Source: Patescibacteria group bacterium
Lineage (GTDB): Bacteria; Patescibacteriota; Patescibacteriia; Patescibacteriales; UBA12465
Assembly: GCA_041658665.1 (NCBI GenBank)
Contig: JBAZZR010000002.1
Span: 73,147 to 137,146 of the forward strand
Reading direction: 5' to 3'
DNA: 64,000 nt
Under the pieces are notes generated by a model. That model was not told the DNA's origin and did no database searches. It worked only from the letters and a program-made list of their open reading frames with translations. Shown in pieces: positions 41,508 through 61,605 of the stretch (positions within the stretch are counted from its first letter, which is position 1; each line of letters begins with the position of its first letter). Both the position numbers and the translations under genes were made by a program.

Positions 41508-41508
41508 A

Positions 41509-45020: not shown

Positions 45021-45049
45021 TTGACAAAAGCCAATAAAATTAATAATAT
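45021..45049 (+). promoter_or_regulatory. Sigma-70-type promoter
   Basis: TTGACA-N17-TAATAT, 52 nt upstream of the 45101 ATG. Confidence 0.55.
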
Positions 45050-45100
45050 ACAATATCGAACTTTAAAAATATTTAATCATCAAAAAAAGGAAGATAAAAA

Positions 45101-45808
45101 ATGAAAACAAATCCAAACCCCTTCGCCGACCTAATAAACCAATTCTACCGGGATATTAAAGAAATAACGGCAGAAACCGCTCTCATCTGTTCCCGAACTT
45201 ATTATAGTATGACCGAGAGCCAAATCATCGCCCTTTACGAAAATTTCGGGCTTTGTCTCCATCAACAATTATACTCGTTAATCGGAGATACCCGCGCAGA
45301 AACTGCCGGACCCAATACTTGTTTTAGTAAAATAAATTTAATACTTGAATCTATAACCGAAGACGACGCTTTTCAAAAATCGGCTTTCTATTGGTCCCAG
45401 ATTCAATTTTGGATAAAATATCCTAATCAAGAAGAGTTAGACGCCGAAATAGATAAGCTAAAATTAATTATCCAAAAAACTTTAGCCCTAAGGCTAACTA
45501 AAAACCAGTCTAACGGAAAATTAATTCTGCTTAGCCTCGCCTACTTACTATGGCTCGAGCAATCTATTCCGACTATACGAGCATTTGGCGTTAAGCACGA
45601 CACTCATATTTTCTGGAGCACGGAGAAATACTTTATCACTTTCTTACCATCTCTCCAGCAACATAATAGATTACTAATGGAAGCGGCTAAAAATAGCAAT
45701 CTACTAGGAATCGAAAAAGAAGAATGGTGGAAAACAACCACCGAAGAAATAATTCAGAATTTACGAGAATATAATCGCCTAATATTTCAACCGGTGATAA
45801 AAAAATAA
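45101..45808 (+). CDS. Hypothetical protein
   Basis: 235-aa ORF with its own promoter and a shared terminator. No family recognised. Confidence 0.5.
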   Translation: MKTNPNPFADLINQFYRDIKEITAETALICSRTYYSMTESQIIALYENFGLCLHQQLYSLIGDTRAETAGPNTCFSKINLILESITEDDAFQKSAFYWSQIQFWIKYPNQEELDAEIDKLKLIIQKTLALRLTKNQSNGKLILLSLAYLLWLEQSIPTIRAFGVKHDTHIFWSTEKYFITFLPSLQQHNRLLMEAAKNSNLLGIEKEEWWKTTTEEIIQNLREYNRLIFQPVIKK

Positions 45809-45822
45809 TTTATCTTCTATCT

Positions 45823-45855
45823 AAAACAAGCTATCTAACGCCGATAGCTTGTTTT
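45823..45855. terminator. Bidirectional terminator between convergent genes
   Basis: AAAACAAGCTATC-N7-GATAGCTTGTTTT. Confidence 0.7.
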
Positions 45856-45882
45856 CATGCGCGCTTAATAGTAGCAATCAGT

Positions 45883-47550: not shown

Positions 47551-47604
47551 ATAATTTTTACTTAATTAAAATTTTTATATATCACCCGACTATAATTTCG
47601 AGAG

Positions 47605-48186
47605 TTATTTCATGGTGAACAATTTCATCAGTAACCCGTGTCTGGCTTTAATTTTTTTCTTGGCCCAGGGAAAAAATATCTTTTTATTATAATCCCTATT
47701 TAATTTCTCGAGCGCCCATAATTTAAAGTCGGCCGCGTTTCTTCGGCCAGTGGTGGCTATTTGCAGATAAAAATCATTTATATAATGAGCCATCGCATCG
47801 GCAGTCGCTAAAATTTTTCCCTCTAAAGTTACGGGTTTATTTTTACCACAACTATGCGTTAAAATAATATTTTGGACTTTTTTTATCATCTCGGAACTAT
47901 AACCATATTCCAACATTATTTTTTTAGCCTCAAGCGCCCCCATTTTTTGATGATCCCCGCTCTTTCCCCTAACTCTCTGGGTATCATGTAACCAAACGCC
48001 TAATAGCGTTACCTCCCTATCCGCTTTTGGCAGTTTCTTTAATAAAAATTTAGCATATTTTTCAACCGCTAATAGATGAGTATCATAAAACCAGGGTTCG
48101 ATATGTCCTAAATCACGACATTCATTCTTAATTTTTTCTTTAATTTGTTGAACCGTTTTAAGAGACATAATTTTATATCTATACAA
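47605..48186 (-). CDS. HD-domain phosphohydrolase
   Basis: H...VE..A (HLLAVEKYA) and GVWLHDTQR, the HD motif. The likely ATG start is at 48168 (MSLKT). Confidence 0.75.
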   Translation of the reverse strand: MYRYKIMSLKTVQQIKEKIKNECRDLGHIEPWFYDTHLLAVEKYAKFLLKKLPKADREVTLLGVWLHDTQRVRGKSGDHQKMGALEAKKIMLEYGYSSEMIKKVQNIILTHSCGKNKPVTLEGKILATADAMAHYINDFYLQIATTGRRNAADFKLWALEKLNRDYNKKIFFPWAKKKIKARHGLLMKLFTMK

Positions 48187-48275
48187 AAAAGATAAAAATC
48201 ACCTTATTTACCTTAAAATCATCTCATTTTATAAGTGAAAAGTCAAAAACAAGAAACAAAAGAATGGCTTTAAAC

Positions 48276-49010
48276 TTAGACAAATTCTAATAACAAAGCT
48301 TTATGATCAGAAACTTCTTCCGGCAAAGCCAAGAAATCTTTAACTGCAATATCTGATGAGCATAAGACATAATCAGCAAACTTTTCTGGCTTTTCGTAAT
48401 AAGAGGTGCGCGTAGACTCTAATTTATATTCCTTAACTAAATTTTTTAAATTAAGTTCTTGCTCAATCAAATTTAGACTCTGTGTATCTGGTCTCAAATT
48501 AAAATCCCCGGCTAAAATTATCTCACCGCTCAGACTCTTAATAAAATTAATAATCTTTTCCGATTGTCCCAGTCTTTCCGGGGAGTCAAGCTTGCCATGG
48601 CCGCTCCAAAGACCGTGAAAATTTAAAATATTAAAAGTTTTACCATTTAAAACAGCGACTATGAACTGTAAATTGCGACCCACGGTCGTCGCATCACGTC
48701 CAATCATCGAATCGCGCTCTCGATAGACAAAAAAATCCCCATTCTCTAAAACCTGAATAGAACGTTTAATAAAAATAGCTAAGCCCCACTCGCCCGCTTC
48801 CACTGGAGCAAAATAACCTAGATGATCAGGTAAAGATTCACTGATCTCCATAAATAATTTGGCTCTTTCCCGCTCATTAAAGACGGTTCGCTCAGTGCCA
48901 TTATGGAAGATCTCCTGTAACAGAAAAATATCGACCTCTTGGTGTTTTCCAAAAAAATCTAAAATTTCTTCCACTCGTCCGCCCCAAGCATTTAAAGATA
49001 TTAATTTCAT
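48276..49010 (-). CDS. Endonuclease/exonuclease/phosphatase (EEP) family protein
   Basis: SLNAWGG...DIFLLQE...GDFN...SDHKAL. Confidence 0.75.
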   Translation of the reverse strand: MKLISLNAWGGRVEEILDFFGKHQEVDIFLLQEIFHNGTERTVFNERERAKLFMEISESLPDHLGYFAPVEAGEWGLAIFIKRSIQVLENGDFFVYRERDSMIGRDATTVGRNLQFIVAVLNGKTFNILNFHGLWSGHGKLDSPERLGQSEKIINFIKSLSGEIILAGDFNLRPDTQSLNLIEQELNLKNLVKEYKLESTRTSYYEKPEKFADYVLCSSDIAVKDFLALPEEVSDHKALLLEFV

Positions 49011-49130
49011 ATATAACCATACTAAAAGCTATTTTTTAGCTTTCCTTAATATTTTATCAAACCATTATCGACGCCGACCTCGGCCAAGTCATTGTCTCAC
49101 AAAGTCTAATGACTATCTAAATTAGATAGC

Positions 49131-49859
49131 CTATTTTTCTATTACTGCCGTAATCGGTAAATGGTCAGAGCCTGTTGAATCGTCAACCTGAAAAGAATTG
49201 ATCTTAATATCTCGACTCGTAAATATATAATCCAATTTATATTTAACACTTTCGACTAAACAACCCGTACAACCTTCTTTATATACTGACCAGGTCGGCG
49301 TAGCCGAACTCAGTTCGGCGTCTTGTAATGTTCGGCTCATCTTTTTAATCACTGAACTATCGGGCAATGAATTAAAATCTCCCATCACGATTACTTTCTT
49401 AGCCGGGAGAAAGCCTAATAAATTTTCGACCTCCTGATCCTGTAAAACTGATGGCTGCTGATGCGTATGCTTAAGATGAATACTAAAAATAGATAAAATT
49501 TCCGATCCTATCTTAATATCAGCTGCTATCACTAGCCGCCGGAAATCATCGGCGTAGCTTAATTCATGTATTTGGCTACTAATAATTTTATATTTACTTA
49601 AAATCGCCGGCCCAAATTTTTTACTGCCCTTATCATCGCTTTTATATCCTGGAAGGAATCGGAGCGGGATTTTCATCTCAATCGCGTGAACGCATTCATA
49701 GCCTAATTCTTTGGCAATAACATCAGCGATATTACCCCTTTCGTCTTCAGTCGCTTCCTGAAGAGCAATAATATCTGCTTCAGCGCTTTTTAAAAACACA
49801 ATTACTTCGTCCAAATGCGTTCCGCACCAAATATTCCAAGATATAACTTTAAGTTTCAT
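49131..49859 (-). CDS. Endonuclease/exonuclease/phosphatase (EEP) family protein, diverged tandem paralog
   Basis: SWNIW...DIIALQE...GDFNS...SDHLPI. Confidence 0.75.
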   Translation of the reverse strand: MKLKVISWNIWCGTHLDEVIVFLKSAEADIIALQEATEDERGNIADVIAKELGYECVHAIEMKIPLRFLPGYKSDDKGSKKFGPAILSKYKIISSQIHELSYADDFRRLVIAADIKIGSEILSIFSIHLKHTHQQPSVLQDQEVENLLGFLPAKKVIVMGDFNSLPDSSVIKKMSRTLQDAELSSATPTWSVYKEGCTGCLVESVKYKLDYIFTSRDIKINSFQVDDSTGSDHLPITAVIEK

Positions 49860-50014
49860 ATATTATAAGAAGGTTGTTATAAAAAATTAGGACTCTAAAA
49901 CCTTAGACACGTTCAGTCAAAAAGGTTGCCAGTAATCTTATTATAATTTTACTACCGCAAAATACAAAAAACAAGCGGATATTAGATTTAATATCCGCTT
50001 GGCAATTCGCTTTT

Positions 50015-50533
50015 TTATATAGGAACTTTCAGACCAAAAATTACCTGGGCTTGGATAATTTTTGTTTTACCCGCCTCGGGATGTTTAGCCTCTTGGAACT
50101 CAACTACTTCGAGAAAAAAATGACCATCGGCATGACACAAATTCAAAAAATCGGCCGCTAGTTTTTCATCGTTATAAATAGCCCCGGAAGAAAAATGAAG
50201 ATAGGTATCTTTAACTTCACCAATAAACTCTGGGAAAAACTCTAATATTTCTTCTTTAGTCCAAAAAGTATCAAAGACCACTCCCGATTCTCCCGGCACA
50301 GTAATAGAGGTTACTACGACACCTGATCCCTGATATATTTTAGCAAAGACCCGACGCATGATTCTCTCTACTTCTGGAGGATATTGAAGAACGAACGAAG
50401 CATACGCCTGTCCGTCATTTACTCCAGGCGCAACAGAAACCGTAAGTGAACTATACTCGGGCCAAGCAATAAACAAAGCCACGGGCTGCCCATTAACAGG
50501 ATCGGCGGATTTTCTAACAAATTCTAAACTCAT
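50015..50533 (-). CDS. Hypothetical protein
   Basis: 172-aa ORF followed by the hairpin AAGCGGATATTAGATTTAATATCCGCTT. No family recognised. Confidence 0.45.
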   Translation of the reverse strand: MSLEFVRKSADPVNGQPVALFIAWPEYSSLTVSVAPGVNDGQAYASFVLQYPPEVERIMRRVFAKIYQGSGVVVTSITVPGESGVVFDTFWTKEEILEFFPEFIGEVKDTYLHFSSGAIYNDEKLAADFLNLCHADGHFFLEVVEFQEAKHPEAGKTKIIQAQVIFGLKVPI

Positions 50534-50741
50534 GATAACACCTTCAACATTAATGATTAAATTTGATTAATTACTAAGCTAACAAATATATTTTTAGCTC
50601 AACAATTAACCAAATTATATGTTAAGGTTCGACAACAAAAAAATATAGCACAAGACTATATTTTTATCAATACGCGACTAAATAATAATGAAAGACAATT
50701 TCTCTTCCGGGCCAGAAAAATGAAATGTAGTAAAAATTCTT

Positions 50742-51254
50742 TTAATATATGGATCCAAATCTCCCCTCGGATAAATTTTTAACTACTTCATCGGGCTCAA
50801 AAATTTTACCATTCATACAAACATATATCCCTTCGGATAATTCTTGAGATTTAGCCACCGCATAACCGATATTAAAACCAGCATCAGTCGGAGTAAACCC
50901 CTCCAAAGGAATCATGGAACAGATAAAAATTATAACCTTACCATGATTTTTAAGATTAGCCTGTAAACATCTAGCCGTATCGGGCAAGGTATAAGTCCCG
51001 TGCGTTATGATTATCCTTTTAGCTTTACTGCTAGTAACGGCATCTAATATATTCTTCCGATCCGATTCAATTAATTCCCGACTATCTTTCATGCATACCT
51101 CGGTAAACTCACATTCTTCATATAATTTCAGGATCTTAATAAATTTAGGCACCACTGAATGTTCATTTGTTACAGCGGTGTCCTTTGTCCCGTCATAATA
51201 TGAATCGACAGTCCCGCCAGTCATGATGAAGTGTAGTTTGTTATTTTCAGACAT
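50742..51254 (-). CDS. Asparaginase N-terminal-domain-like protein
   Basis: MTGGTVDS (compare TGGTI), ITHGTYTLPDTA (compare HGTDT), 170 aa. Confidence 0.6.
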   Translation of the reverse strand: MSENNKLHFIMTGGTVDSYYDGTKDTAVTNEHSVVPKFIKILKLYEECEFTEVCMKDSRELIESDRKNILDAVTSSKAKRIIITHGTYTLPDTARCLQANLKNHGKVIIFICSMIPLEGFTPTDAGFNIGYAVAKSQELSEGIYVCMNGKIFEPDEVVKNLSEGRFGSIY

Positions 51255-51330
51255 ATTACGATTATTAATATTATATATAAATTATAACAAAAAATGTTAA
51301 TTTTTTAAACCTAATCGGATGATCAAAATC

Positions 51331-51702
51331 TTACTGTCTGGCCGCCACTACTTCAATTTCTAAACTAGCGCCTAAAGGTAACTGTGACACTCCTAGAGCT
51401 GTCCGAGCGGGAAATGGATGATTGAAATATTTCTTATATTCCTCATTTAGAGCTGGTAACTCGGCTAAATCTGTTAAATAGAGACGTACTTGAATAATAT
51501 CATTAATTGTTAAATCAGCTGCAATGAGTATATTTTTAATGTTATCCATAGCGGCGTTAAAACGTTCTCCAATTGTCTCACCGATAAGCTTCCATTCTTT
51601 GTCGGCATGAATTTGGCCGGAAACAAAGACTAGCCCATTAACTTCCCAGGCTGATTATAATGGGGCATTTAATAACTCGGATGAACCATATACTTTTTTC
51701 AT
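51331..51702 (-). pseudogene. ridA: RidA/YjgF/L-PSP family gene interrupted by an in-frame TAA at codon 16
   Basis: Reading from ATG at 51702-51700 (ATGA overlap with the upstream GNAT stop) gives MKKVYGSSELLNAPL*SAWEVNGLVFVSGQI...ARTALGVSQLPLGASLEIEVVA. The stop at 51655-51657 sits where RidA proteins usually have Tyr (PYS motif). The track shows only the C-terminal 72 aa. Confidence 0.7.
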
Positions 51703-52124
51703 ATATTTTTTATAAAATGATAGCCGTAATTAGTATACCCCAAACTTTCATAAAAAAGATGAGCCGCTTTATGATCATAATGGGATTCTATGAATAGGCG
51801 GTAGCAATCGAGTTCTTTAGCCTTGTCCTCTATCTGTTGCATCAACATTTTTCCTACTCCTTTCTGACGATATTCAGGCCGGACAAAGATTTCATCCAAC
51901 TCGGCAATCGGTTTAGGATAACGAATGACGCTCCTTATGGAAAATGAAGCAAAACCAATCAGTTTACCCAGGTCTTCAGTAACAAAAACAAAATTACTCT
52001 GAGAATCTAAAACTCTGGAAAAGGAGTCGTTATCATGCTTAGAATATTTATCTTCGCCGACAAATAAATTATAGAGACTCATTAGTTCTCGATAATCCGA
52101 CTGACTGACTTTTCTTATATTCAT
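51699..52124 (-). CDS. GNAT N-acetyltransferase
   Basis: IFVRPEYRQKGVGKMLM, an acetyl-CoA motif. Confidence 0.8.
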   Translation of the reverse strand: MNIRKVSQSDYRELMSLYNLFVGEDKYSKHDNDSFSRVLDSQSNFVFVTEDLGKLIGFASFSIRSVIRYPKPIAELDEIFVRPEYRQKGVGKMLMQQIEDKAKELDCYRLFIESHYDHKAAHLFYESLGYTNYGYHFIKNI

Positions 52125-52258
52125 ATTATCTAATTATACTTATATGATACCAAAAAACCGCTCAAATGGCGATTTTTCTTCAATACTGGGCGTCGTGAAC
52201 GCTGTTAGAACTAAAGTTATAAAAAAAATCAATAAATATAATCACAACTAAAAACTAA

Positions 52259-53956
52259 TTATAAATTTAAATTATTTAAAGCCTTGCCGTGGTATGTCCG
52301 ACTAAGATCATCTTCTGGTAATTCATCTTGTATCAAGCCCCTAATCATTTCAGTGTTCCAATCAGGCGACCAATTTTGCGATACCCACATTAGTCCTTCT
52401 TTAAGACCAATTAAATTAAGTTTACGCAATAATTGTGGGTCGGCAAATATTTCTGTAAACCTTTCTTTTAAAAGTGGTAATAAATGATGAAAATTCTTAC
52501 CTTTAAAATTCGAAAAATCTTTTGTCCCCTCAACAAATTGTTGAGGATTATCAATAAAGGCAATTAAAGAAATTAGCGCCCGAATTTTTGGGGCTTTAAG
52601 CGCCGAATCAAAGTCTAATACCGCTGTTAATTTATTATTCTCATGCAGAATATTACCCATATGTAAATCGGTATGGATAAAAACAGATTCACTCTTATCA
52701 AAAACTGAAATGTGTTTTAAAAAATAGATTTCAATTTTATTAATATCTTCTAATGAACACAATTTTTCTGACTTAATCTTAACCACATACTCATTAAACT
52801 CTTTGACTAAAAATTTACTGAAACTAGGATAAGACTCTCGACCGTCAAGATTAACTCGACCAAAATCTTTAAATTTAATTTCGAAAAGCTGATTGACAAC
52901 ATCGAGTATTTGTTTAAAAATAAGCTCCCTCTTCGGTTCACTCATCTCGCAAATATCTTCTAATAACATTTTTCCCTTTGACCGCCTCATGACCAAGACT
53001 TCAAAAGGCGTTTTGTTAAAATAATCATAGGCGATTACCCGAACGACAGGCGCTTGATTACCAAGTCTATCAGAAACTACTTTATTGGCTACATAATCCG
53101 GCTTTTCGTTATTCTGATTCATCTTAATCACTAACTGCGGGGTTAGATAAGTGGCGTGAACATTTCCGGCGTTAGCCTCAGTAATTTCTTCAATCATCGG
53201 TAAATTAGGAATGTCTAGAATATCTAAAACATTTAAAACTTGCTCACGAGTAAATTTTAAAACACGTTTTTGATATTGCTGCTTAATTTCTTCTTGATAT
53301 TTATCAGAATCGACATATTTTTCAGTATCAGCTAAATTATTTCTAGCATCGGATACTTTGGAAAAAAAAATTTCTGGATTAATAAAAAAATAATGGCCAA
53401 ATAATTCGTCAATATATTTTTCCGCGCCGTGATAACTATCCTGCCAACTATTATAGCTTAGGAAATCAAATTCTTTAGAATTAAGAATTAAATCAACGAT
53501 TCGTTCTTTTTCCCAGTGCTGAATTTTATACTTTTGAATCCAGTCCTCAATGAGCAGATGAACAATCTCATGAACAATCGTTTTAGAACCTCTCTGACTA
53601 TTTATATTAAAAACAATGGTATTCGGAAGAAAATAGGAACCATTAGTTCCATAATTAGTTAGGTAAATCAAAAAGGTGTCCGGAATATCTTTATTAAAAA
53701 AATTTTCTAACTTAGAGGATAATTGAAAATAGTTAGTCGAAAAATCAGCGGTTATTTGATTAGCCACCTCTACGTATCTTCCTCTATTAAACTCTTTACT
53801 AATTTGATGCTTAATTTTTTCTTCGGAGAATTCCTTATTTATTCCTTCGGGTAGTCTTGGCTTATAACCATTAAAATCATACCAGTCCATCTTGGCTATG
53901 GTATTTTTGACTCTCTCTGACTCCAGGGCAATTCCAAATTTTATATTTAGTGTCAT
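52259..53956 (-). CDS. Two-domain protein: HExxH metallopeptidase-like N-terminus plus aminoglycoside/choline-kinase-like (APH) C-terminus
   Basis: TIVHEIVHLL at ~residue 127, and FIHTDLHMGNILHE...VLDFDSA (Brenner/APH catalytic loop plus DFD) at ~residues 425-450. Confidence 0.6.
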   Translation of the reverse strand: MTLNIKFGIALESERVKNTIAKMDWYDFNGYKPRLPEGINKEFSEEKIKHQISKEFNRGRYVEVANQITADFSTNYFQLSSKLENFFNKDIPDTFLIYLTNYGTNGSYFLPNTIVFNINSQRGSKTIVHEIVHLLIEDWIQKYKIQHWEKERIVDLILNSKEFDFLSYNSWQDSYHGAEKYIDELFGHYFFINPEIFFSKVSDARNNLADTEKYVDSDKYQEEIKQQYQKRVLKFTREQVLNVLDILDIPNLPMIEEITEANAGNVHATYLTPQLVIKMNQNNEKPDYVANKVVSDRLGNQAPVVRVIAYDYFNKTPFEVLVMRRSKGKMLLEDICEMSEPKRELIFKQILDVVNQLFEIKFKDFGRVNLDGRESYPSFSKFLVKEFNEYVVKIKSEKLCSLEDINKIEIYFLKHISVFDKSESVFIHTDLHMGNILHENNKLTAVLDFDSALKAPKIRALISLIAFIDNPQQFVEGTKDFSNFKGKNFHHLLPLLKERFTEIFADPQLLRKLNLIGLKEGLMWVSQNWSPDWNTEMIRGLIQDELPEDDLSRTYHGKALNNLNL

Positions 53957-54137
53957 ATTTATGGTTTATTATTAAACTCTACCTCTAAGCCTCTAAAAAA
54001 TCAAATTCACGCTAAATAATATGCGTTAGAATTAGTGGAAAAACATAAAATACGATCTAAACAATCCGGGTCTCTTCTAGTAGAGTTAGAACTAATTAAT
54101 TAAAATTATAAATTTAAATATACGTTTTAGCCAAAAA

Positions 54138-54686
54138 GTGATATATTACCATTATAATACTAAAATTATGATAAACGTATCTTTATCAACTCCAACAAAT
54201 GACATAAACAATGAGGGACCCTCTTTCAAACCAAGTAGTATCGACTTACTACAACTTCTCTCGCTTTGCTTACCAGCTTTAATAAGTTGGATTTTTTTTC
54301 AATTCTTGGCAAGAGATCTCGAATTTATGATAGCCGCTTCAAGTATTGGAATGATTATATGTGCTATTCTCAGCTGGTTTTTATATAAAAAATTTAAATC
54401 AATAATTATTATTTGTTTTTTGTATATTTTAGCTGGTTGTATTATATATTTTATATCGAGCCAAGTGGCACCATATTACACTAGCCAATACCTTTTTATA
54501 ATTTACCCTCTGACAACACTGTTTATTCCAACTACTTATATTATAAAGGAGATATTAAGAGATACGAACAGAATCAGCCTCTTTGTTATGAGTCTTTTTA
54601 TATCAATTATTTTTTCATTTGTTTCTTATTATACAATATCATTTCTAGCAGGATTCATTATGCTTTTATTTTATGGTTGGCACTAG
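54138..54686 (+). CDS. Small polytopic membrane protein
   Basis: About 5 TM helices. GTG start in the track; the in-frame ATG at 54168 is more likely. It is the only plus-strand gene between 46 and 61.6 kb. Confidence 0.45.
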   Translation: MIYYHYNTKIMINVSLSTPTNDINNEGPSFKPSSIDLLQLLSLCLPALISWIFFQFLARDLEFMIAASSIGMIICAILSWFLYKKFKSIIIICFLYILAGCIIYFISSQVAPYYTSQYLFIIYPLTTLFIPTTYIIKEILRDTNRISLFVMSLFISIIFSFVSYYTISFLAGFIMLLFYGWH

Positions 54687-54744
54687 GATAAATATACTTT
54701 ATTATTTGAAATAATGTAACGGGCAGCTAATAAATAAATCTTTA

Positions 54745-54865
54745 ACCCGCCCCTCCGCTTCGCTCCTGGGTATAAACTTCGACAACAATCTGGCAATATA
54801 ACAAAAAAGAAGGAATATTATTTCTTCTTTTTTGTGATGCTCGGAGCTTGGGATATAGCTGGAAC
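54745..54865 (-). repeat. Diverged third copy of the composite module (GC-rich segment, hairpin, cassette box)
   Basis: CCCCTCCGCTTCGCTCCTGGGTATAAACTTCGA (compare CCCCTACGCTCCGCTCCGGGGCATAAACTTCGA in the other two copies), a hairpin at 54801-54835 with an unrelated stem sequence, and box GCTCGGAGCTTGGGATATAGCTGGAAC at 54839-54865. Confidence 0.7.
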
Positions 54866-55456
54866 TTACTTATTAACTCTTTCTTTGATTTCTTTTATTA
54901 CGTCCGTCTTACCACTATCGTATTTGCTATAATTATCATGATACTTACTATATAAATCTTTCTTAACAGATATATACAAATTTCGATCTTCTTTATGAGT
55001 CCGCAAATAATCACGAAACTTTAGATCTTCTTCACTTTTGGGCTGTCCTTTTTGAAATACATGCACGCTAGTTAGTCTTCTGCCGTCACCCGTGTCCTCA
55101 GTAAAATATTCATCCCCCGTACCCACATATTCCGTTCCTCTGGGAGTAAACCCAAATTTAATTATTTCTTCGTATAGACTTTTAATTTTAAAAAAATCTC
55201 TAACTAAAATTAAAATATCTATCTGCGGTTTCGCGACCATTCCAGGAATAGAGGTGCTACCAATATGATGAATTTCTAAAAGTTCGTCACCAAAAACAGA
55301 CTTTAATACTTGAGCTTTCTTATTGAATTCTTCGACCCAATTCGGATCATATTCTTTTAATTCAAACTTACGATGAGGTTTCATAATGTTTAATACTAAA
55401 TGATCTGTCTCGGGCTCTCTTAAATTGACCGGGAGGATAGGATATAGTTGAAACAA
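54866..55456 (-). CDS. GrpB-family (UPF0157) protein
   Basis: IHHIGSTSIPGMVAKPQIDILI. Confidence 0.75.
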   Translation of the reverse strand: MFQLYPILPVNLREPETDHLVLNIMKPHRKFELKEYDPNWVEEFNKKAQVLKSVFGDELLEIHHIGSTSIPGMVAKPQIDILILVRDFFKIKSLYEEIIKFGFTPRGTEYVGTGDEYFTEDTGDGRRLTSVHVFQKGQPKSEEDLKFRDYLRTHKEDRNLYISVKKDLYSKYHDNYSKYDSGKTDVIKEIKERVNK

Positions 55457-55490
55457 CTATAAACAATAATTTTAATTAATTATACTTATA

Positions 55491-55787
55491 TTAATTAAAT
55501 TTCTTTTTCTCCCAGGACCTCTCTATATAAACTTTCTGCCAACAAAAGCGTCCTATAAAAAAACCACCAGTTGCCCCAAGTGCCCACAGCGCGACCTGAA
55601 GCACCGGCGGCAAGGCACAACCGCCATAAAATGGCACCACTCGACCTTGATTTAAAACCCATTGTAAATAATTTATTTCAATCAAAGCGTGCCCGATGAG
55701 ACTTAATAAAAGACCTAAAATTATAAAAGCAAATAAATAAACTACCTTTTTTAATCTAGTTGGTTTGCCTGGGACATTAAAAATCAT
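55491..55787 (-). CDS. Small membrane protein
   Basis: 98 aa with two TM helices. Confidence 0.45.
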   Translation of the reverse strand: MIFNVPGKPTRLKKVVYLFAFIILGLLLSLIGHALIEINYLQWVLNQGRVVPFYGGCALPPVLQVALWALGATGGFFIGRFCWQKVYIERSWEKKKFN

Positions 55788-55788
55788 A

Positions 55789-55914
55789 TTATTTCTTTTT
55801 ATTCAACTTTTTGGGCAATTTCTTGCCCTTAGGAGTTTCGGCCGCCCATCTTTTTGCCATTTTCGGTTTGTTGGCGAACATCCATTTACGCTGGGCAATG
55901 CTTTTAAACGGCAT
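55789..55914 (-). CDS. Small basic protein (41 aa), below the ORF-track cutoff
   Basis: My translation: MPFKSIAQRKWMFANKPKMAKRWAAETPKGKKLPKKLNKKK. Its stop is 1 nt before the next ATG. Confidence 0.4.
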   Translation of the reverse strand: MPFKSIAQRKWMFANKPKMAKRWAAETPKGKKLPKKLNKKK

Positions 55915-55924
55915 AACTTATTAA

Positions 55925-56167
55925 TTAATGGCTAATTAACTTTATTTTCTGATCTCTCGGCAATTTTTTTATTTTGTTTTCCGCCTTTAGGGCTAAGGAC
56001 CGATTGCGACATTTCTTTATATAAACTAGCTTGACTGGCCGGCGCGAGCGAGTGTACTTCGCGCCGAGTCGAGAGGAATTATGCTCCTTCACTCTTCGCT
56101 CCAAATCAACCGTGATACCGGTGTATAATGTCTTATCGGCACATTTCAAGATATATAGATAATACAT
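55925..56167 (-). CDS. GIY-YIG nuclease-family small protein (UPF0213-like)
   Basis: YYLYILKCADKTLYTGITVDLERRVKEHN. Confidence 0.8.
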   Translation of the reverse strand: MYYLYILKCADKTLYTGITVDLERRVKEHNSSRLGAKYTRSRRPVKLVYIKKCRNRSLALKAENKIKKLPRDQKIKLISH

Positions 56168-56168
56168 A

Positions 56169-56194
56169 GCTGGAGTTTAGGATAAGGTTGGAAC
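56169..56194 (-). repeat. Cassette box (tRNA-3'-end-like)
   Basis: Plus-strand GCTGGAGTTTAGGATAAGGTTGGAAC. It abuts the GNAT stop (56195) on one side and the GIY-YIG ATG (56167) on the other. Confidence 0.7.
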
Positions 56195-56635
56195 TTATTT
56201 TTTTACCAACATCAGTCTTGGCTCACCATCACCGAAATAGTTATCTTTCCAAGATTCAATAAAAAAGCCTAGCGGCAGATATAAACAAAGGGCTGGATTA
56301 TTATTAGGATGCACTAATAATTCAATGCGAGAATATTTAGATACTCTTTTTAAAACAATATTAACTGCCCGCTTTGCAACACCTTCACGTCTAAATTTTT
56401 TCCTGACTACCAAACCGTCTAAATAAACGACATTTTTCTTTACTATTTTATAAGCGATTAAGCCAAGAACAATATTTTGTCTTTTTATTAAAAAAACAAA
56501 TTCCTTATTGATAAAATTTTTCAATTCTACGTCATTAATCAAGGCGGAATATGTTTTTGATTGAGCTTCCTTCTCGATATCGGCTATCTCCTTTAAATCC
56601 CTCCACGTCGCTTTTTTCAATAAAACTTTATTCAT
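56195..56635 (-). CDS. GNAT N-acetyltransferase
   Basis: LVVRKKFRREGVAKRAV. Confidence 0.75.
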   Translation of the reverse strand: MNKVLLKKATWRDLKEIADIEKEAQSKTYSALINDVELKNFINKEFVFLIKRQNIVLGLIAYKIVKKNVVYLDGLVVRKKFRREGVAKRAVNIVLKRVSKYSRIELLVHPNNNPALCLYLPLGFFIESWKDNYFGDGEPRLMLVKK

Positions 56636-56655
56636 ATTTTATTGTTTATACAATA

Positions 56656-56684
56656 AAAATAGCATTTTCATGCTATTTTGTAAA
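56656..56684 (-). promoter_or_regulatory. Cassette promoter/terminator hairpin module
   Basis: On the minus strand: TTTACA, then the hairpin AAAATAGCAT-gaaa-ATGCTATTTT with a T-run. Confidence 0.5.
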
Positions 56685-56688
56685 CATT

Positions 56689-56715
56689 GCTGGGAGAATG
56701 GAGTGTAGTTGGAAC
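56689..56715 (-). repeat. Cassette box (tRNA-3'-end-like)
   Basis: Plus-strand GCTGGGAGAATGGAGTGTAGTTGGAAC, 44 nt after the NUDIX stop. Confidence 0.7.
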
Positions 56716-56759
56716 GCTAATTAATCTTTAGATATTTATTTAATACCACTAAATATAAA

Positions 56760-57215
56760 TTATATTACTTGCAGATGCTGTAAAATTTCGACAACCGAGC
56801 CACCACATTGCTTTTTGTCTAACGTTACTAATTCAACCCATCGCGGTTGTTTGGTGCCATCATCAACAATGTTGTCTAAATCAATAGATAACGGCTTACA
56901 CAAATAAAAAAAGGCAAAATTATGATAAGCCTTGTCCCAGTGATCATAATAAATAAACTGCTCTTTAAAATTAATAAACTTTCCTACCTCGATTTTTAGG
57001 CCCGTTTCCTCTTCTGACTCCCTCTTTAATGTGGCCTCAATTGTTTCGCCTAACTTGATGCCGCCACCAGGGAAATAATATTTATTGTTAGACTCGGCGG
57101 TAACTAAGAGGACTTTACCATCATTTATTATAACCGCATACGCGCCTGGTCTAAAAGATAATTCTTCCACGGGGACCATTTTCTTGTAACCATTAATAGA
57201 AGTACATTCAATCAT
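56760..57215 (-). CDS. NUDIX hydrolase
   Basis: Nudix box GGGIKLGETIEATLKRESEEETGL. Confidence 0.85.
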   Translation of the reverse strand: MIECTSINGYKKMVPVEELSFRPGAYAVIINDGKVLLVTAESNNKYYFPGGGIKLGETIEATLKRESEEETGLKIEVGKFINFKEQFIYYDHWDKAYHNFAFFYLCKPLSIDLDNIVDDGTKQPRWVELVTLDKKQCGGSVVEILQHLQVI

Positions 57216-57231
57216 ATATTTCGATAAACTT

Positions 57232-57270
57232 TATATATCAAAAATAGCACCAAAAGTGCTATTTAGTCAA
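57232..57270 (-). promoter_or_regulatory. Cassette promoter/terminator hairpin module
   Basis: TATATATCAAAAATAGCACCAAAAGTGCTATTTAGTCAA, 38/39 identical to 59116-59154. On the minus strand: TTGACT, then the hairpin AAATAGCAC-ttttg-GTGCTATTT with a T-run. Confidence 0.55.
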
Positions 57271-57272
57271 AA

Positions 57273-57299
57273 GCTGGGAGTTTGGAATATAGTTGGAAC
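57273..57299 (-). repeat. Cassette box (tRNA-3'-end-like)
   Basis: Plus-strand GCTGGGAGTTTGGAATATAGTTGGAAC, 12 nt after the PfkB-kinase stop. Confidence 0.7.
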
Positions 57300-57311
57300 T
57301 AAAATATCTAA

Positions 57312-58196
57312 TTAAAGAGACAATTGAGATTCCAGTCTAGCCAAAACATTTTTAACACTACTTCTAAAAGCCCCTTTTTCCTCTAAAGACATCGTGGCAA
57401 CCATGGCCGCAAATCTTCCCCGATCAACCGGATCATCAAACAATTCTAAGGCTCTGATAAAAGCTGCCAAATAAGTATCCCCCGCGCCAGTCGGATCCAC
57501 TATTTTATCCGGTAAAAAGGCCGGAATTTTATAGTAGTTGTTCTCTAAAAAAAGATGCGAACCTTTTGAGCCCTCAGTAATAATCATATCGATTAGACCG
57601 TGAGCTTGAAGATATCTTGCCGCATCATTTACATTATTTTCCCCTGAGACAAATTCAGCCTCGCCCTTGTCTAAAAATAAATATTTTAAGAATGGCAGAA
57701 CTTCAATCAAATTTTCCGGGTTCTTTCGGACAAATTTGCCACTTTCTCCGTAGGTAAACATTCCGAAATTACCTAAAACTAAATTCTTATGTTTTAATTT
57801 AATAAATAATTCACGGGAAATATCATCATGAAATAAAGGACCAAAAATTATATAATCGAATTCTTCTAATTCTTTCAGTAACCTATCATTTGGTTCGATT
57901 GTATTGGGATAGCTCTTTATTATGTCTTTTCTAATATCAGGATTATCGGATGAATATTCTAAATCAGACTCTAGAGTTTTTTCAGCTGGTAGACACTCAA
58001 TGTCTATATCGGAAAAATTTTCTTTTACCCAGGCCGTATCTTCTGAGCCGCAAGTAACATAGGGTTTAACTTTTTCAACACCCAAAGATTTTAGAGCAAC
58101 TGCCACATAATAAGGGATGCCGCCAATTTGCATCGACAAATTATTATCTATTTTGATACAATCTTTGGCTACTGGCCCCAAGACGGCAATCTTCAT
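57312..58196 (-). CDS. PfkB-family carbohydrate/nucleoside kinase
   Basis: DPTGAGDTYLAAF, the PfkB signature 2 with its catalytic Asp, in a 294-aa protein. Confidence 0.8.
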   Translation of the reverse strand: MKIAVLGPVAKDCIKIDNNLSMQIGGIPYYVAVALKSLGVEKVKPYVTCGSEDTAWVKENFSDIDIECLPAEKTLESDLEYSSDNPDIRKDIIKSYPNTIEPNDRLLKELEEFDYIIFGPLFHDDISRELFIKLKHKNLVLGNFGMFTYGESGKFVRKNPENLIEVLPFLKYLFLDKGEAEFVSGENNVNDAARYLQAHGLIDMIITEGSKGSHLFLENNYYKIPAFLPDKIVDPTGAGDTYLAAFIRALELFDDPVDRGRFAAMVATMSLEEKGAFRSSVKNVLARLESQLSL

Positions 58197-58197
58197 A

Positions 58198-59106
58198 TTA
58201 ACTATTTATTTCTTTAGTTTGCCCTTTGGCAGTGACTGATATGTTGCTAGTCTCTTTATCGTCACTATCTGCAATTTTAAAGGCTATGTTTTCACAGTTT
58301 TTCATTGATTCACCAAAATTTTCATTTAAAAAATAAAGAAAGGAATTTTCATGACTAAAAGCTAAAACTTTAATGTTTTTTTCCGGCTGCCGCTGATTAA
58401 TTTTTTCTTGGCCGAATCGTACTAACCGCAACAAATTTTTAAACTTTGACTCATATACTTCCTTGGCGGATTTTACATTAGGAAATATTTTTTGAATTTC
58501 TTCGGAATGAGCAGCATAATTTTCGCCCCAAGTTTTTTGATTATCTTCTTCAATTATCTTTCGGGCAGCTGTCCATTTTTCTTTAGTTTCAGTTGAAACT
58601 TTGTCTAAATTTTCAATTTCTTTTAAATAATCTTTAGGTTGAAAAATTTGTTCCCTAAGCATATTTTCCAAATGATCTAATGACAGGCAGTCTATTTTTC
58701 TAATATACCCTTCACCAATCTCTTCGGCCTTATTTTTTGATTCAGGCGACTTCTCTTTTTTTGCTGAAATAATAACCTCAAAGCCATTTTCTCTGGCGAT
58801 ATCTAAATATATTTTAGCAGTTTCAGCGGCGCGAACTAAATCACTAGAAACAAAAAACAAAGCATCGGTCCCCGGGTTAAGTTTAGCAAAAAATTCCTGT
58901 GCCTTTTCTTGCGCAAGTTTTATCCCTTCAGATGTTAGATCAGAATTAAACCATTGCTTATCTGCACTCGGAGCAGCCTCGGGGTTGTCAGATTTTATTA
59001 TCCCTTCATTTAACTTATATTCAGATATACTATGTCTAATAACAAAAAATTCATCGTCTTTTTTTCGTTTCTGACTATTATCAATTTTCTCAAAATTATT
59101 ATTCAT
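58198..59106 (-). CDS. Histidine phosphatase superfamily (phosphoglycerate-mutase-like) protein
   Basis: FFVIRHSISEY (RHG-type motif), a later ...SDLVRAAETA, and AFSHENSF (second His). Confidence 0.65.
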   Translation of the reverse strand: MNNNFEKIDNSQKRKKDDEFFVIRHSISEYKLNEGIIKSDNPEAAPSADKQWFNSDLTSEGIKLAQEKAQEFFAKLNPGTDALFFVSSDLVRAAETAKIYLDIARENGFEVIISAKKEKSPESKNKAEEIGEGYIRKIDCLSLDHLENMLREQIFQPKDYLKEIENLDKVSTETKEKWTAARKIIEEDNQKTWGENYAAHSEEIQKIFPNVKSAKEVYESKFKNLLRLVRFGQEKINQRQPEKNIKVLAFSHENSFLYFLNENFGESMKNCENIAFKIADSDDKETSNISVTAKGQTKEINS

Positions 59107-59115
59107 ATAATTATT

Positions 59116-59154
59116 TATATATCAAAAATAGCACCAAAAGTACTATTTAGTCAA
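59116..59154 (-). promoter_or_regulatory. Cassette promoter/terminator hairpin module
   Basis: TATATATCAAAAATAGCACCAAAAGTACTATTTAGTCAA, a near-identical copy of 57232-57270. Confidence 0.55.
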
Positions 59155-59157
59155 TTC

Positions 59158-59294
59158 GCTGCGGGACTTGGATTTACCCCTACGCTCCGCTCCGGGGCAT
59201 AAACTTCGAATCCCAACGCCTACGGCGTTAAACAAAACACAGACATAAATGTCTGTGTTTTGTTTAAGCTGAGAGGATGGGATATAGTTGGAAC
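59158..59294 (-). repeat. Composite module, copy 1 (tRNA-3'-like 17-mer, 93-bp module, cassette box)
   Basis: 59158-59271 matches 61424-61537 at 112/114 positions, with 103 consecutive identical bases at 59169-59271. It ends in box GCTGAGAGGATGGGATATAGTTGGAAC (59268-59294). Confidence 0.9.
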
Positions 59295-59324
59295 GGCTTT
59301 ATTGAATAACTCTTTCAAATCTAT

Positions 59325-61370
59325 CTAATATTCCTCTCTTTTTAATTTTTCTAATTCCGAAAATCTTTGCTTCATTGTTTTTGTCTCCAAGGAGATAATC
59401 TCACCAGCCAACTGATTGACCAATTCTGGATCATACTCATATTTTATCCAACCATACTTTATTGCTTGCCTCTTAAATGGTACTAAAATTTCTTTTGTAA
59501 TATCTACTAAATCAAACATCCATTTCATCCTGGTAGGGGTTTCATGATATTGAGTTAATAACGTCACCTTAACATGCTCTATCAATTTAACAATTATCTC
59601 CACCGTTGAGTCAATGCCTCCCGATTTCCACAATAATTCATTAATTTTTAATTTTTCTTTTTTTGTCAGTTTTTTCCTTAAACATCTTATTAAAAATTCT
59701 TTTTCTTTCTTAACCAAATAGGGGGAATATAAAGCGATGATATATTCTGTATGTATTTTTCCATCTTCTATATCAGAATGCGACTGACCCTTCATCCCTT
59801 TATTTAATTTAGAGTAATCTTCCATCATAATATAATCCCCCAAATCATTCCTAATCATCTGGATAATACCATAATACATCCCTATCGCTGGTGATATGAT
59901 ATCCACCTGTTTAGCGTTCATGATCTGATCTTCTTTGTTCCCTAATTGAGCCGCCAATCTACCAACCGCTTCGTAAAATCCGCCACAAATGCCATAGATT
60001 CTTTGGATATAAATAGTATATAATTCGTGAACATCCTTTTTATAAATCAACTCCTTTTTAGTTTCGGAATCAAAAGTTAGCAGTAAATCCAAAACCTGTC
60101 CTTCATACATGGTGTGATTATAGTCGTTTATTGTGGTGGCTATCCGCCGAGCAACGTCCTTATTCTCTGCGGCGATAATAAAGCTATATTTCAAAGCTAA
60201 TAAATGACCGATAATCCCTGTAAATATAGCATCTCGCCGGCTAAATTCATTCCAAACTGTATTTAAATTTTGTCTAACCCGAGAATTATCGAAGACATCA
60301 TCTAGAGCATAGGTGTTCATCCAATTATATAGTTCCACTAATGCTCCTACTTCACAAGGAAAGGATTCGGATTTTACGAAACGCTGCTCCCGAGTAAGGT
60401 GGTGCGTCACTAAATCATAAAGTTCAAAAAATAACTCCGCTCGAGTCTTTTTCACCCCCTGTTTCCTATTCTCTACTTTTTTAAAGGGCGGCAAGATAGA
60501 GTGTTGTAAACAATCTAAAATATGATCCCTAGAACTTCCCCACTCGATCACAACAGCGCTAATGGCGGAATCTATCTTGTCCTCTGCAATATTATTTTTA
60601 AAATATTCTGAAATTTTCCTCTCAATAGCACATACTAGCAGGGAATCTTCATCACAATCAAACTCTAAACTTTGCAAATTTTTTAGTTCTTTGGCTATAA
60701 CAATATTTGGTTTTACTGTGTTAAAAATGGTTATATCCAAATTTTTCCTACTAAACACACCCCTGGCCAATGCATCGACGTGATAATTTATAATTCCCGT
60801 GCGAGAATAAATAGAACGATAATAATTTTTTAGATATTCAATGATCTTGTTCTCCATCTGCCCCTTATCTTGGGCATACAATAAAGTCGCATGAACAAAT
60901 TTAGGGTGATCTTTTACCACATCGGCCACTTCTTTGTCTGTTGTTAATATGGCATTAATACTGAAGCTGACCATCCACTGAGCGGCATAATAGTCTACAT
61001 GCTCTTTATCTTCAATCAACATAATGACCGGCTTGCCCTTAGCGATAGCATAACCACACTCCCAAGTGCTATCCGTCCCCACAGGAGAACCATCCAGCGA
61101 ATCATATTTCTTCATATACACGAGGAGTGCATCAGCGTGATTAATCTCATTTAAATCATAACAAGCTATTCCTATCGGGATAAACCTATGATCATCCGGG
61201 TTATCAAGAACCCCAGGTTCAAACAATTTAATTTTTTTATTAAAAAAATTTGAATATTGAGAATTAAAAAACTTCTTCCATAGAGTTATGCCACTAGCGA
61301 GATAAAGCCGGTACTCAAATTTCTTATCTATCTTCCCCATATGAATATATTTATGACTTAAAAATACCAT
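59325..61370 (-). CDS. Fusion protein: nucleoside 2-deoxyribosyltransferase-like N-domain plus polyprenyl-synthase-like C-domain
   Basis: N-terminus YLASG...ADALLVYM...DGSPVGTDSTWECGYAIAKGKPVIML follows the NDT-family pattern. C-terminus YALDDVFDNSRVRQNLNTVWNEF....AIFTGIIG follows the first Asp-rich motif context (compare DDxxDxSxxRRGxPT), and YGIIQMIRNDLGDY follows the second (compare FQxxDDxxD). Confidence 0.6.
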   Translation of the reverse strand: MVFLSHKYIHMGKIDKKFEYRLYLASGITLWKKFFNSQYSNFFNKKIKLFEPGVLDNPDDHRFIPIGIACYDLNEINHADALLVYMKKYDSLDGSPVGTDSTWECGYAIAKGKPVIMLIEDKEHVDYYAAQWMVSFSINAILTTDKEVADVVKDHPKFVHATLLYAQDKGQMENKIIEYLKNYYRSIYSRTGIINYHVDALARGVFSRKNLDITIFNTVKPNIVIAKELKNLQSLEFDCDEDSLLVCAIERKISEYFKNNIAEDKIDSAISAVVIEWGSSRDHILDCLQHSILPPFKKVENRKQGVKKTRAELFFELYDLVTHHLTREQRFVKSESFPCEVGALVELYNWMNTYALDDVFDNSRVRQNLNTVWNEFSRRDAIFTGIIGHLLALKYSFIIAAENKDVARRIATTINDYNHTMYEGQVLDLLLTFDSETKKELIYKKDVHELYTIYIQRIYGICGGFYEAVGRLAAQLGNKEDQIMNAKQVDIISPAIGMYYGIIQMIRNDLGDYIMMEDYSKLNKGMKGQSHSDIEDGKIHTEYIIALYSPYLVKKEKEFLIRCLRKKLTKKEKLKINELLWKSGGIDSTVEIIVKLIEHVKVTLLTQYHETPTRMKWMFDLVDITKEILVPFKRQAIKYGWIKYEYDPELVNQLAGEIISLETKTMKQRFSELEKLKREEY

Positions 61371-61423
61371 AAAATCAGTAAGAAATCAAAAAAATAAGAC
61401 AAAATGCCTTATTTATATAGGGT

Positions 61424-61550
61424 GCTGCGAGACCTGGATTTACCCCTACGCTCCGCTCCGGGGCATAAACTTCGAATCCCAACGCCTACGGCGTTAAACA
61501 AAACACAGACATAAATGTCTGTGTTTTGTTTAAGCTGCGAGACCTGGATT
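61424..61550 (-). repeat. Composite module, copy 2, directly abutting tRNA-Gln
   Basis: GCTGCGAGACCTGGATT at 61424-61440 is an exact 17-nt copy of the tRNA 3' end at 61534-61550. The 93 bp between them is identical to the copy at 59176-59268. Confidence 0.9.
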
Positions 61551-61605
61551 CGAACCAGGATAAACGGCTTCAAAGGCCGCTGTCCTACCGTTAGACGATC
61601 TCGCA
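61535..61605 (-). tRNA. tRNA-Gln (anticodon UUG)
   Basis: Hand-folded cloverleaf: acceptor TGCGAGA/TCTCGCA, D-arm GTCT-AACGGTA-GGAC, anticodon arm GCGGC-CTTTGAA-GCCGT, T-arm CCTGG-TTCGAAT-CCAGG, discriminator G. CCA is not encoded. Confidence 0.9.

Follow-up and report, generated by a model that had tools for sequence, protein, structure and literature searches.

We analysed a 64,000-nt stretch of a Patescibacteria group bacterium genome (contig JBAZZR010000002.1, positions 73,147 to 137,146); this whole stretch is referred to as the window. Next to an intact tRNA-Gln gene, a single gene for a 681-aa protein is bracketed by two copies of an exact 103-bp repeat. Each copy contains a hairpin-bearing module, here called M, and runs into a copy of the 3' end of the tRNA. 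We suggest that the gene arrived in a circular unit of 2,266 bp, which would have been inserted by a Campbell-type event at the 3' end of the tRNA gene or within M, and that the island behind it was built serially. In our estimate this reading is slightly better than even, with a probability of roughly 0.55.

Genomes of the Candidate Phyla Radiation (CPR, Patescibacteria) are tiny, and the gain and loss of their accessory genes is poorly understood. The locus described here lies at a tRNA gene, and its mostly single-gene cassettes turn over between strains. Its junction elements are conserved, and the module recurs beside different tRNAs in distant lineages, together with the 3' end of the local tRNA. 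Should a dedicated recombinase or RNA be responsible, the locus would represent a compact system of gene capture that differs from integrons as well as from integrase-carrying islands, with sites sharply enough defined for direct tests. If not, it would be a clean natural example of short conserved anchors organising a flexible island.

An exact repeat and a copied tRNA end bracket the 681-aa gene

The minus strand carries the tRNA and all cassette genes, and the locus is described in this direction. Base-by-base comparison confirms the identity of the two repeat copies (Table 1) over 103 bp at an offset of 2,266, as claimed in a preliminary description of this DNA. With the left flank from 59158, the agreement is 112/114, also as given there, with mismatches at 59164 and 59168. 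It is the sole exact repeat of at least 30 nt, direct or inverted, within the 64-kb window. The exact part spans the last 4 nt of the preceding junction (CAGC), M, and then the first 6 nt of the tRNA copy. Its edges are sharp: on one side a box stands against the tRNA, on the other the 17-mer against a 17-mer with two mismatches. The sequence between the perfect copies is made up of the 17-mer, a weak hairpin in the leader, a single open reading frame (ORF) and a 27-bp box. A tandem duplication, which had been offered as another origin of this arrangement, does not fit, as only 103-114 bp are doubled and the gene is present once.

In minus-strand order, copy 1 of M consists of a terminator hairpin (61496-61531), which starts 4 nt past tRNA-Gln, a small hairpin AACGCC-TAC-GGCGTT (61481-61495) and a conserved GC-rich 33-mer (61443-61475); the 3' part of M reads ..GGGATTCGAA-GTTTATGCCCCGGAGCGGAGCGTAGGGGTA. 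The terminator hairpin has 17-nt arms and is found in both copies (in copy 2 at 59230-59265; fold z = -4.7). In copy 2 it occupies the place expected for the terminator of the 681-aa gene. The parts named earlier, i.e., the 17-mer, a GC-rich segment, two hairpins and a GCTG junction, are all present as described, and the diverged third copy that had been noticed is real. In this copy, M'', the 33-mer (54750-54782) is 29/33 (88%) identical to that of M and is accompanied by an unrelated hairpin with 20-nt arms (54798-54838), while at the position of the 17-mer the likeness to the tRNA is barely recognisable (9/19 by eye). The 33-mer has three matches in the window where none is expected, and each of the three module copies follows the tRNA or a box.

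The 3' 17 nt of tRNA-Gln (61534-61550) are the anchor sequence that is copied within the island. This 17-mer, GCTGCGAGACCTGGATT, is found exactly at site A and in the tRNA itself, and with two mismatches at site A', against an expectation of 0.09 from shuffled sequences. The unit is flanked by these direct repeats of the tRNA 3' segment, with 17/17 identical positions at A and 15/17 at A'. On the minus strand, A reads AATCCAGGTCTCGCAGC and A' reads AATCCAAGTCCCGCAGC. The two mismatches of A', at positions 64 and 68, are transitions located in stems. Because its acceptor half TCCCGCA is identical to that in the tRNA-Gln of a related lineage (L046), A' is more suggestive of the 3' end of a different tRNA-Gln allele than of random decay. 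The tRNA-Gln gene is preceded by a promoter-like TTGACA-17-TAATAT at 61657-61629.

Elsewhere in the window, no further decayed copies of the module or of the 17-mer were found above chance. A 14/17 match to the 17-mer (GCTAAGAGACCAGGATT) at 13259-13275, inside a YceG-like gene, is probably due to chance. Three k=31 Logan contigs (L038, L043 and L044) end inside tRNA-Gln near the anticodon. This would fit a second tRNA-Gln gene (CUG) sharing the 5' half, and the 3' end of such a gene could be the source of box-type or A'-type sequences. The idea of a primer-binding site, with the plus strand complementary to the tRNA 3' end, was rejected since the CCA complement is absent (by eye).

A sister strain lacks the gene

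The sister strain L041 (GCA_036170015.1) has an FtsX that is 98% identical in amino acids, and its flanks are 95% identical to the window at the nucleotide level. Its tRNA-Gln is followed by a terminator, a long (~140-nt) version of the module, an exact 17-mer and then GAATTGACTAA, which is the continuation also found after A' in the window. The 681-aa gene is absent, and A' takes the position of the L041 17-mer. As L041 has GAATTGACTAA after its 17-mer without the gene, the simplest history would place the extra 2,266 bp between the tRNA and the ancestral M-17mer. The module in L041 is the long variant, so this is not an exact empty site for the 2,266-bp unit. A recent insertion of the unit, as proposed earlier, fits the gene-less strain with its 95% identical flanks, the position of A', and a self-closing contig described below.

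Further along, L041 carries methyltransferase and hydrolase genes, a box, NUDIX, a box, an NNMT-type methyltransferase, a box, and then GIY-YIG, 41-aa and 98-aa genes. The NUDIX and GIY-YIG cassettes are common to both strains, and the homology starts and ends at box edges. The same interval between two conserved boxes is filled by a GNAT gene in the window and by the NNMT-type methyltransferase in L041.

A 3.3-kb segment of the window is also absent in L041. It contains box b5, GrpB, box b6, M'', a 182-aa ORF and a 565-aa APH-like kinase. Its edges (55469-55491 and 52123-52150) carry a 15-nt direct repeat, ATATAAGTATAATTA, and are not boxes.

Assembly evidence on the two repeat copies

The source contig, k141_157777, belongs to a metagenome assembly (ENA ERZ27247322). 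We take its name to follow MEGAHIT naming, which would imply a final k of 141. Since this exceeds the 103-bp repeat, k-mers that span the repeat should support both flank combinations, tRNA-M-17mer and box-M-17mer'. In the k=31 Logan assembly of SRR8449812, a 2,296-bp contig has identical first and last 30 nt, i.e., it closes on itself with a period of 2,266 bp. It confirms the b1-M and M-A junctions and may derive from the same sample; such a contig is equally expected from a circle and from an integrated repeat. Another Logan contig carrying a homologue of the gene (L066, 2,288 bp) was considered as a second case, but it does not close on itself.

An assembly artefact is a very unlikely source of the second copy, as is a chimera of two strains, one with a tRNA-M-gene and one with a tRNA-M-His-phosphatase arrangement. 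Such an error would be in keeping with a metagenome assembly of a strain-variable locus, and short-k assemblies do break there. Against it stand the k that the contig name implies, the box-M junction in the Logan contig, and the same layout in an unrelated genome (L002, below).

A cassette array divided by 27-bp boxes

The tRNA-proximal ~7 kb of the island form an array of mostly single-gene units, all co-oriented and split by 27-bp boxes. The order starts with tRNA-Gln, M, A, the weak hairpin, the 681-aa gene, box b1, M and A'. It continues with a 41-nt leader, His-phosphatase and PfkB genes and b2; a leader, NUDIX and b3; and a leader, GNAT and b4. GIY-YIG, 41-aa and 98-aa genes then precede b5, and GrpB is followed by b6 and M''.

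The boxes start 0-44 nt past stop codons. Their consensus, GTTCCAACTATATCCCAnnCTCCCAGC, has no internal symmetry (by eye). In a 3'-aligned comparison with the tRNA-Gln 3' 16-mer, 11/16 positions agree for b1 and 10/16 for b2 (hand count), against 16/16 for A and 14/16 for A'. Because they share derived states (..ATCCCA..CTCCCAGC), the boxes are best read as a separate family that has a tRNA-Gln-type acceptor end, and not as independent decay products of this tRNA.

The leader upstream of the His-phosphatase gene is 98% identical to 57230-57270 upstream of NUDIX, although the two cassettes are unrelated. Its hairpin is located in the spacer of a promoter-like TTGACT-N18-TGnTATTTT, a pattern found in three leaders. 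A related leader is seen at 56656-56684. With respect to defence cargo, the sole PADLOC match is the NUDIX protein, which matches a candidate family.

Table 1. Features of the tRNA-Gln locus, in window coordinates
Feature	Position	Strand	Basis or remark
tRNA-Gln(UUG), intact	61534..61605	-	ARAGORN; Rfam tRNA 64.8 bits
Exact 103-bp repeat, copy 1	59169..59271		base-by-base comparison
Exact 103-bp repeat, copy 2	61435..61537		base-by-base comparison
Module M, copy 1	61441..61533	-	hairpin, 33-mer and repeat searches, fold
Module M, copy 2	59175..59267	-	identical to copy 1
Module M''	54745..54838	-	33-mer and terminator-like hairpin
Site A	61424..61440	-	exact tRNA-Gln 3' 17-mer (T-loop A58 to 3' end)
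Site A'	59158..59174	-	tRNA 3' 17-mer with 2 transitions
Bracketed gene, 681-aa ORF	59325..61370	-	ORF list, domain scans, homologue search
Box b1	59268..59294	-	GTTCCAACTATATCCCATCCTCTCAGC; 30 nt past the stop of the 681-aa gene
Box b2	57273..57299	-	after His-phosphatase and PfkB genes
Box b3	56689..56715	-	after NUDIX gene
Box b4	56169..56194	-	directly after GNAT stop codon
Box b5	55427..55454	-	after GIY-YIG, 41-aa and 98-aa genes
Box b6	54839..54865	-	directly after GrpB stop codon
41-nt cassette leader	59114..59154	-	hairpin and promoter-like pattern; upstream of His-phosphatase
Flexible island, ~20 kb	41508..61533		between tRNA-Gln and conserved backbone; tblastx vs L059, L058, L045

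The array lies in a flexible island of about 20 kb

The preliminary description had found the repeat and the bracketed gene, while the ~20-kb island around them and the conserved module family escaped it. The island begins 1 nt past tRNA-Gln and extends to a conserved backbone with a 278-aa gene, a histidine kinase, a response regulator, PBP, HrcA, GrpE and DnaK. In L059 (FtsX 74% identical), a tRNA-Gln with the same 3' end is followed only by its terminator and then by the backbone, i.e., the homologue of 40671-41507 followed by the same genes from the histidine kinase to DnaK. The window counterparts of these genes are at 28-41.5 kb. As L059 is contiguous from the tRNA terminator to the backbone, 41508-61533 is, by this alignment, extra DNA at tRNA-Gln relative to L059. 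The G+C content is 0.32-0.36 in the 42-62 kb bins and mostly 0.37-0.42 in the bins to the left of 42 kb. Two other relatives (L045 and L058) hold other genes in the same slot, with no tRNA copies there. Many short-read contigs of relatives end just past FtsX, as expected at a hypervariable site.

The module recurs beside other tRNAs

Exact-pattern scans with the 33-mer gave four GTDB species genomes, two genuine metagenome matches and two chance matches. The 33-mer is found downstream of tRNA-Ser(GCU) in L001 and L002, of tRNA-Gln(CUG) in L004 and of tRNA-Gln(UUG) in L036, the last with the same FtsX synteny as the window. In these four loci it is found 45-60 nt past the tRNA, with a terminator of unrelated sequence in between, and 15-18 nt of the local tRNA's own 3' end adjoin it on the far side. 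Copies equivalent to the 17-mer are thus present in L001, L002, L004 and L036, as well as in L041. L002 mirrors the window, with tRNA, module and copy ahead of a single 112-aa gene, and a degenerate module with a one-mismatch copy behind it. The module is preceded by box-like sequence in L034 and by core-like sequence, with no tRNA nearby, in L003.

In six other loci the copy of the tRNA end starts at T-loop position A58, with TTCGAA on the other side of the GC-rich insert. The earlier view that the module is a tRNA end split inside the T-loop holds across these loci. A search of other genomes, which had been proposed as a check, places the module outside the window after a tRNA in five loci and after box- or core-like sequence in two. 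These contexts do not bear out a randomly scattered miniature inverted-repeat transposable element (MITE). A MITE, or a miniature element derived from an insertion sequence (IS), would have many dispersed copies and a target-site duplication of fixed length. It was rejected, as the window contains only three copies, all after tRNA or box, and the length of the duplicated segment varies from 15 to 18 nt.

A GC-rich version of about 140 nt is found in L041 (7415-7579) and L036 (3425-3588), between TTCGAA and the tRNA 3' copy. These long modules fold with z about -6 and have no match in Rfam. Among 37 predicted pairs, 11 are compensatory (from two sequences only), including an outer stem that tracks the local T-stem (CCAGG vs CCTGG). 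The fold is better on the tRNA-sense strand (-72.7 vs -65.3 and -59.4 vs -46.4 kcal/mol), whereas short modules do not fold better on this strand. The ~140-nt element may be an undescribed family of RNA or DNA hairpins. The left arm (..GGATTCGAA) repeats, in inverted orientation, the beginning of the right arm, and the whole element can thus be read as a hairpin, with a stem that would be the tRNA T-loop/T-stem segment and a loop of 31 or ~140 nt. Boxes look like the same hairpin site with a loop insert of 4-5 nt. The 33-mer is constrained on its own, with a function of its own that no model explains, because M'' and L003 keep it without a recognisable tRNA tail. A short ORF in the 33-mer (MPRS..) was rejected since the ATG is missing in three copies, and a promoter since the hexamer spacing is wrong (by eye).

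Another sequence, past tRNA-Gln and its terminator at 11795-11900 of L046, has a small hairpin (GCGCCGAAGGCGC) and then GGAATTCGAG.., similar to the beginning of M. The 33-mer is missing and the tRNA-like tail is doubtful; the sequence may be a degenerate relative.

The bracketed protein

The 681-aa protein has an N-terminal nucleoside 2-deoxyribosyltransferase-like domain fused to a polyprenyl-synthetase-like domain. Public gene calls start the gene at the ATG at 61340, giving 671 aa. Only 59 homologues were found at E < 1e-10, with 40-68% identity and scattered over Patescibacteria, and a sequence search for homologues of solved structure gave none. In L067, tRNA-Trp and its terminator immediately precede the gene for a 66% identical homologue. 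Past this gene, AGTTCCAACTTCCTCCACAATGGCCTGCAG begins like the boxes in the window (GTTCCAAC), but its end copies tRNA-Trp (GCCTGC). The homologue in L068 has no adjoining tRNA.

How the unit may have been inserted

We suggest that M is a tRNA-flank module marking the ends of DNA units that were inserted serially at the 3' end of tRNA-Gln. The newest unit would be the 2,266 bp next to the tRNA, comprising M, the exact 17-mer, the leader, the 681-aa gene and box b1, and its insertion would have pushed the older M with the two-mismatch 17-mer inward. Because the repeat is exact and sharply bounded by diverged sequence, a single crossover in the shared segment is suggested. This crossover would lie in the stretch from CAGC (the last 4 nt of the tRNA or the box), through M, to AATCCA. 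The likeliest catalyst would be a site-specific recombinase encoded elsewhere and acting on the 17-mers and boxes. Such a trans-acting enzyme seems more probable than other routes because junctions everywhere carry the local tRNA 3' end from A58. The same product would result from RecA-dependent recombination within M. Each M would also serve as terminator for the upstream tRNA or gene, and the 103-bp repeats would permit renewed deletion of the 681-aa gene.

Several observations weigh against this reading. The product would look alike after site-specific and after homologous recombination. In the scans against Pfam and NCBIfam, the scanned window ORFs gave no tyrosine or serine recombinase, no transposase and no HUH protein. 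These scans covered the ORFs at 237-23838 and at 26653-61370, apart from 34590-35321 and a few short ones; FtsX/FtsE, the five ORFs of 111-507 aa at 23854-26286 and the remainder of the 822-kb genome lay outside them. No recombinase was found among ten ORFs scanned next to modules in L001-L004 either, and neither viral contigs nor phage or plasmid records contain the module. The boxes lack the inverted-repeat symmetry of classical tyrosine-recombinase core sites, and with their shared derived states they are not simple decayed copies of this tRNA end. The conserved insert between the TTCGAA left arm and the tRNA-derived right arm does not follow the order of an attP attachment site (arm, core, arm), and M'' keeps its 33-mer (29/33) though its 17-mer position has decayed.

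The same product could come from homologous recombination after DNA uptake, with no dedicated system. Here the tRNA, M, the 27-bp boxes and the 41-nt leaders would be short homology anchors, and the repeat would have arisen when a fragment or circle with M and the gene recombined with the resident M. We consider this the main rival, although unlikely. In its favour, the crossover may lie anywhere in the 103 bp of identity, leaders are 98% identical between unrelated cassettes, and the 3.3-kb segment absent in L041 is bounded by a 15-nt repeat and not by a box. Same-slot islands without tRNA copies (L045 and L058) and the lack of a recombinase in the scanned ORFs point in the same direction. 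However, homologous recombination leaves unexplained why a tRNA-3'-like 16-mer stands at every junction, why the copy in other genomes matches the adjacent tRNA and always starts from A58, and why a tRNA-Trp end is found in the box beside the gene homologue at tRNA-Trp. Anchors of 27 bp are short for RecA-dependent exchange.

Two further explanations assign the repeat to the module itself. M, or its GC-rich core, could be a small non-autonomous mobile element that targets the palindromic T-loop TTCGAA and persists only within partial copies of tRNAs, as its insertion into an intact one would be lethal; it would have inserted twice, before and after arrival of the gene. The constant insertion point, after TTCGAA and before AATCC in all loci, speaks for this, as do AGCG-rich motifs common to the short (31-nt) and long (~140-nt) versions, a core that is ~85-90% conserved among distant Patescibacteria beside different tRNAs, and the strong structure of the long version with its compensatory pairs. 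We nevertheless find it quite unlikely, as the two window copies are identical over 93 bp including a lineage-specific hairpin, which fits local copying better than two arrivals. In addition, no transposase was found in the scanned ORFs, there are no window copies outside tRNA or box contexts, and the duplicated tRNA segment of 15-18 nt is unlike a fixed target-site duplication. Alternatively, module and tRNA copy could together be a functional RNA, guide-like or decoy, with a scaffold, a 15-18-nt tRNA-identical 3' tail and a terminator. The repeat would then reflect selection for the RNA and not a history of recombination, and this is compatible with the other readings. A terminator-like hairpin does follow the copy in the window, L036, L041 and L001, the long modules favour the tRNA-sense strand and show compensatory changes, and TTCGA precedes the matching tRNA segment as a target-adjacent motif would. 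As an explanation of the repeat it is decidedly improbable: there is no Rfam match, and neither the window nor the surroundings of other modules showed a TnpB-, Cas12- or IscB-like gene; the short modules do not favour the sense strand, M'' and L003 keep the 33-mer without a recognisable tail, and insertion explains the terminators equally well.

Relation to known systems

Tycheposons of Prochlorococcus are tandem tRNA-integrating elements and remnants in flexible islands (bioRxiv 10.1101/2020.12.28.424599). As in the window, such islands are seeded at the 3' side of tRNAs, partial tRNA copies separate the units, newer arrivals push older ones inward, the cargo varies between strains and there are remnants without an integrase. 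However, neither an integrase (tyrosine or large serine recombinase) nor a replication module (primase/helicase) was found in the scanned island ORFs, and most units consist of one gene and measure 0.5-2.3 kb. The 27-bp box family, instead of plain partial tRNAs, accounts for most junctions, a conserved GC-rich structured insert splits the T-loop, and the host belongs to the CPR. The system would be a variant of tRNA-targeted islands. While the general phenomenon of partial tRNAs between tandem elements, as in tycheposons, is known from the literature, nothing was found there on CPR or on this module, and the module family and its cassette junctions appear undescribed.

The array also resembles integron arrays. 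Its cassettes are compact, co-oriented and mostly carry a single accessory gene (GNAT, NUDIX, GrpB), a junction element follows each ORF, and cassettes are swapped between strains at the junctions. The junction elements range from 27 to ~170 nt, and the larger ones are hairpins whose shape is conserved and whose sequence varies, as in integrons. In contrast, the anchor is a tRNA gene and not attI, and three scanned cassettes have their own promoter-like leaders. A classical integron was rejected, as there is no intI among the scanned ORFs, the neighbours of the array are FtsX and FtsE, and the boxes have neither R''/L''-L'/R' symmetry nor a GTTRRRY core (by eye). Modules of the Xer/dif type were rejected too, since the boxes lack dif-like inverted arms (by eye).

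Williams is said to have distinguished, in 2002, sublocation classes of tRNA attachment (att) sites, including a T-loop class of tyrosine integrases. The window resembles this class in that the identity runs from the T-loop to the tRNA 3' end and the insert restores the tRNA and supplies a new terminator. It differs in that the distal T-loop is interrupted by a conserved insert of 31 or ~140 nt and no cognate integrase was found. The module was rejected as a phage or plasmid att site, because neither the short nor the long version has a match in IMG/VR pattern scans and blastn gave no phage or plasmid match. Two matches of the 17-mer in phages are coding sequence of high-GC phages, and 28 single matches of the box 16-mer in viral contigs all lack the GCTGnGAG flank and are due to chance.

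In TnpB omega-RNAs, and in the delocalised tRNA-matching CRISPR RNA of type V-K CRISPR-associated transposons, the 3' guide is taken from flanking DNA. The module is similar in having a structured scaffold, then ~17 nt identical to a tRNA segment, then a terminator. Unlike these guide RNAs, it has no effector gene in sight, no ends of the IS200/IS605 or Tn7 type and no Rfam match, and some modules have no tail. In the Rfam 15 scan only the tRNA passes, other matches being far below gathering scores.

It can be speculated that the locus is an integron-like capture platform of some CPR bacteria, templated on the tRNA, in which a recombinase acting in trans would insert and excise cassettes at the tRNA 3' end and the hairpin modules (stem copying the T-stem/T-loop segment, loop of 5 to ~140 nt) would be its recognition sites and equivalents of attC/attI, or else that a guide-like RNA addresses the tRNA gene through its 17-nt tail. 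We regard this as unlikely.

Other features of the island and its surroundings

The island contains two truncated genes, a 72-aa C-terminal fragment of RidA/L-PSP (51331-51549) and a 170-aa N-terminal domain of asparaginase (50742-51254), and two paralogous genes for EEP-family nuclease/phosphatases (48276-49010 and 49131-49859). In L046-L055, at ~11038-11736, a gene for a 232-aa protein with a helix-turn-helix (HTH) lies between FtsX and tRNA-Gln and overlaps the start of the tRNA by 15 nt; it was missed by the gene caller in some strains. Its motif ..LYWAEGSK.. is reminiscent of homing endonucleases. Six genes upstream of FtsX is a gene for a VirD4/TrwB-like coupling protein (~637 aa, with a zinc-finger domain; L037:2952-4865), which is kept in the backbone of every lineage examined.

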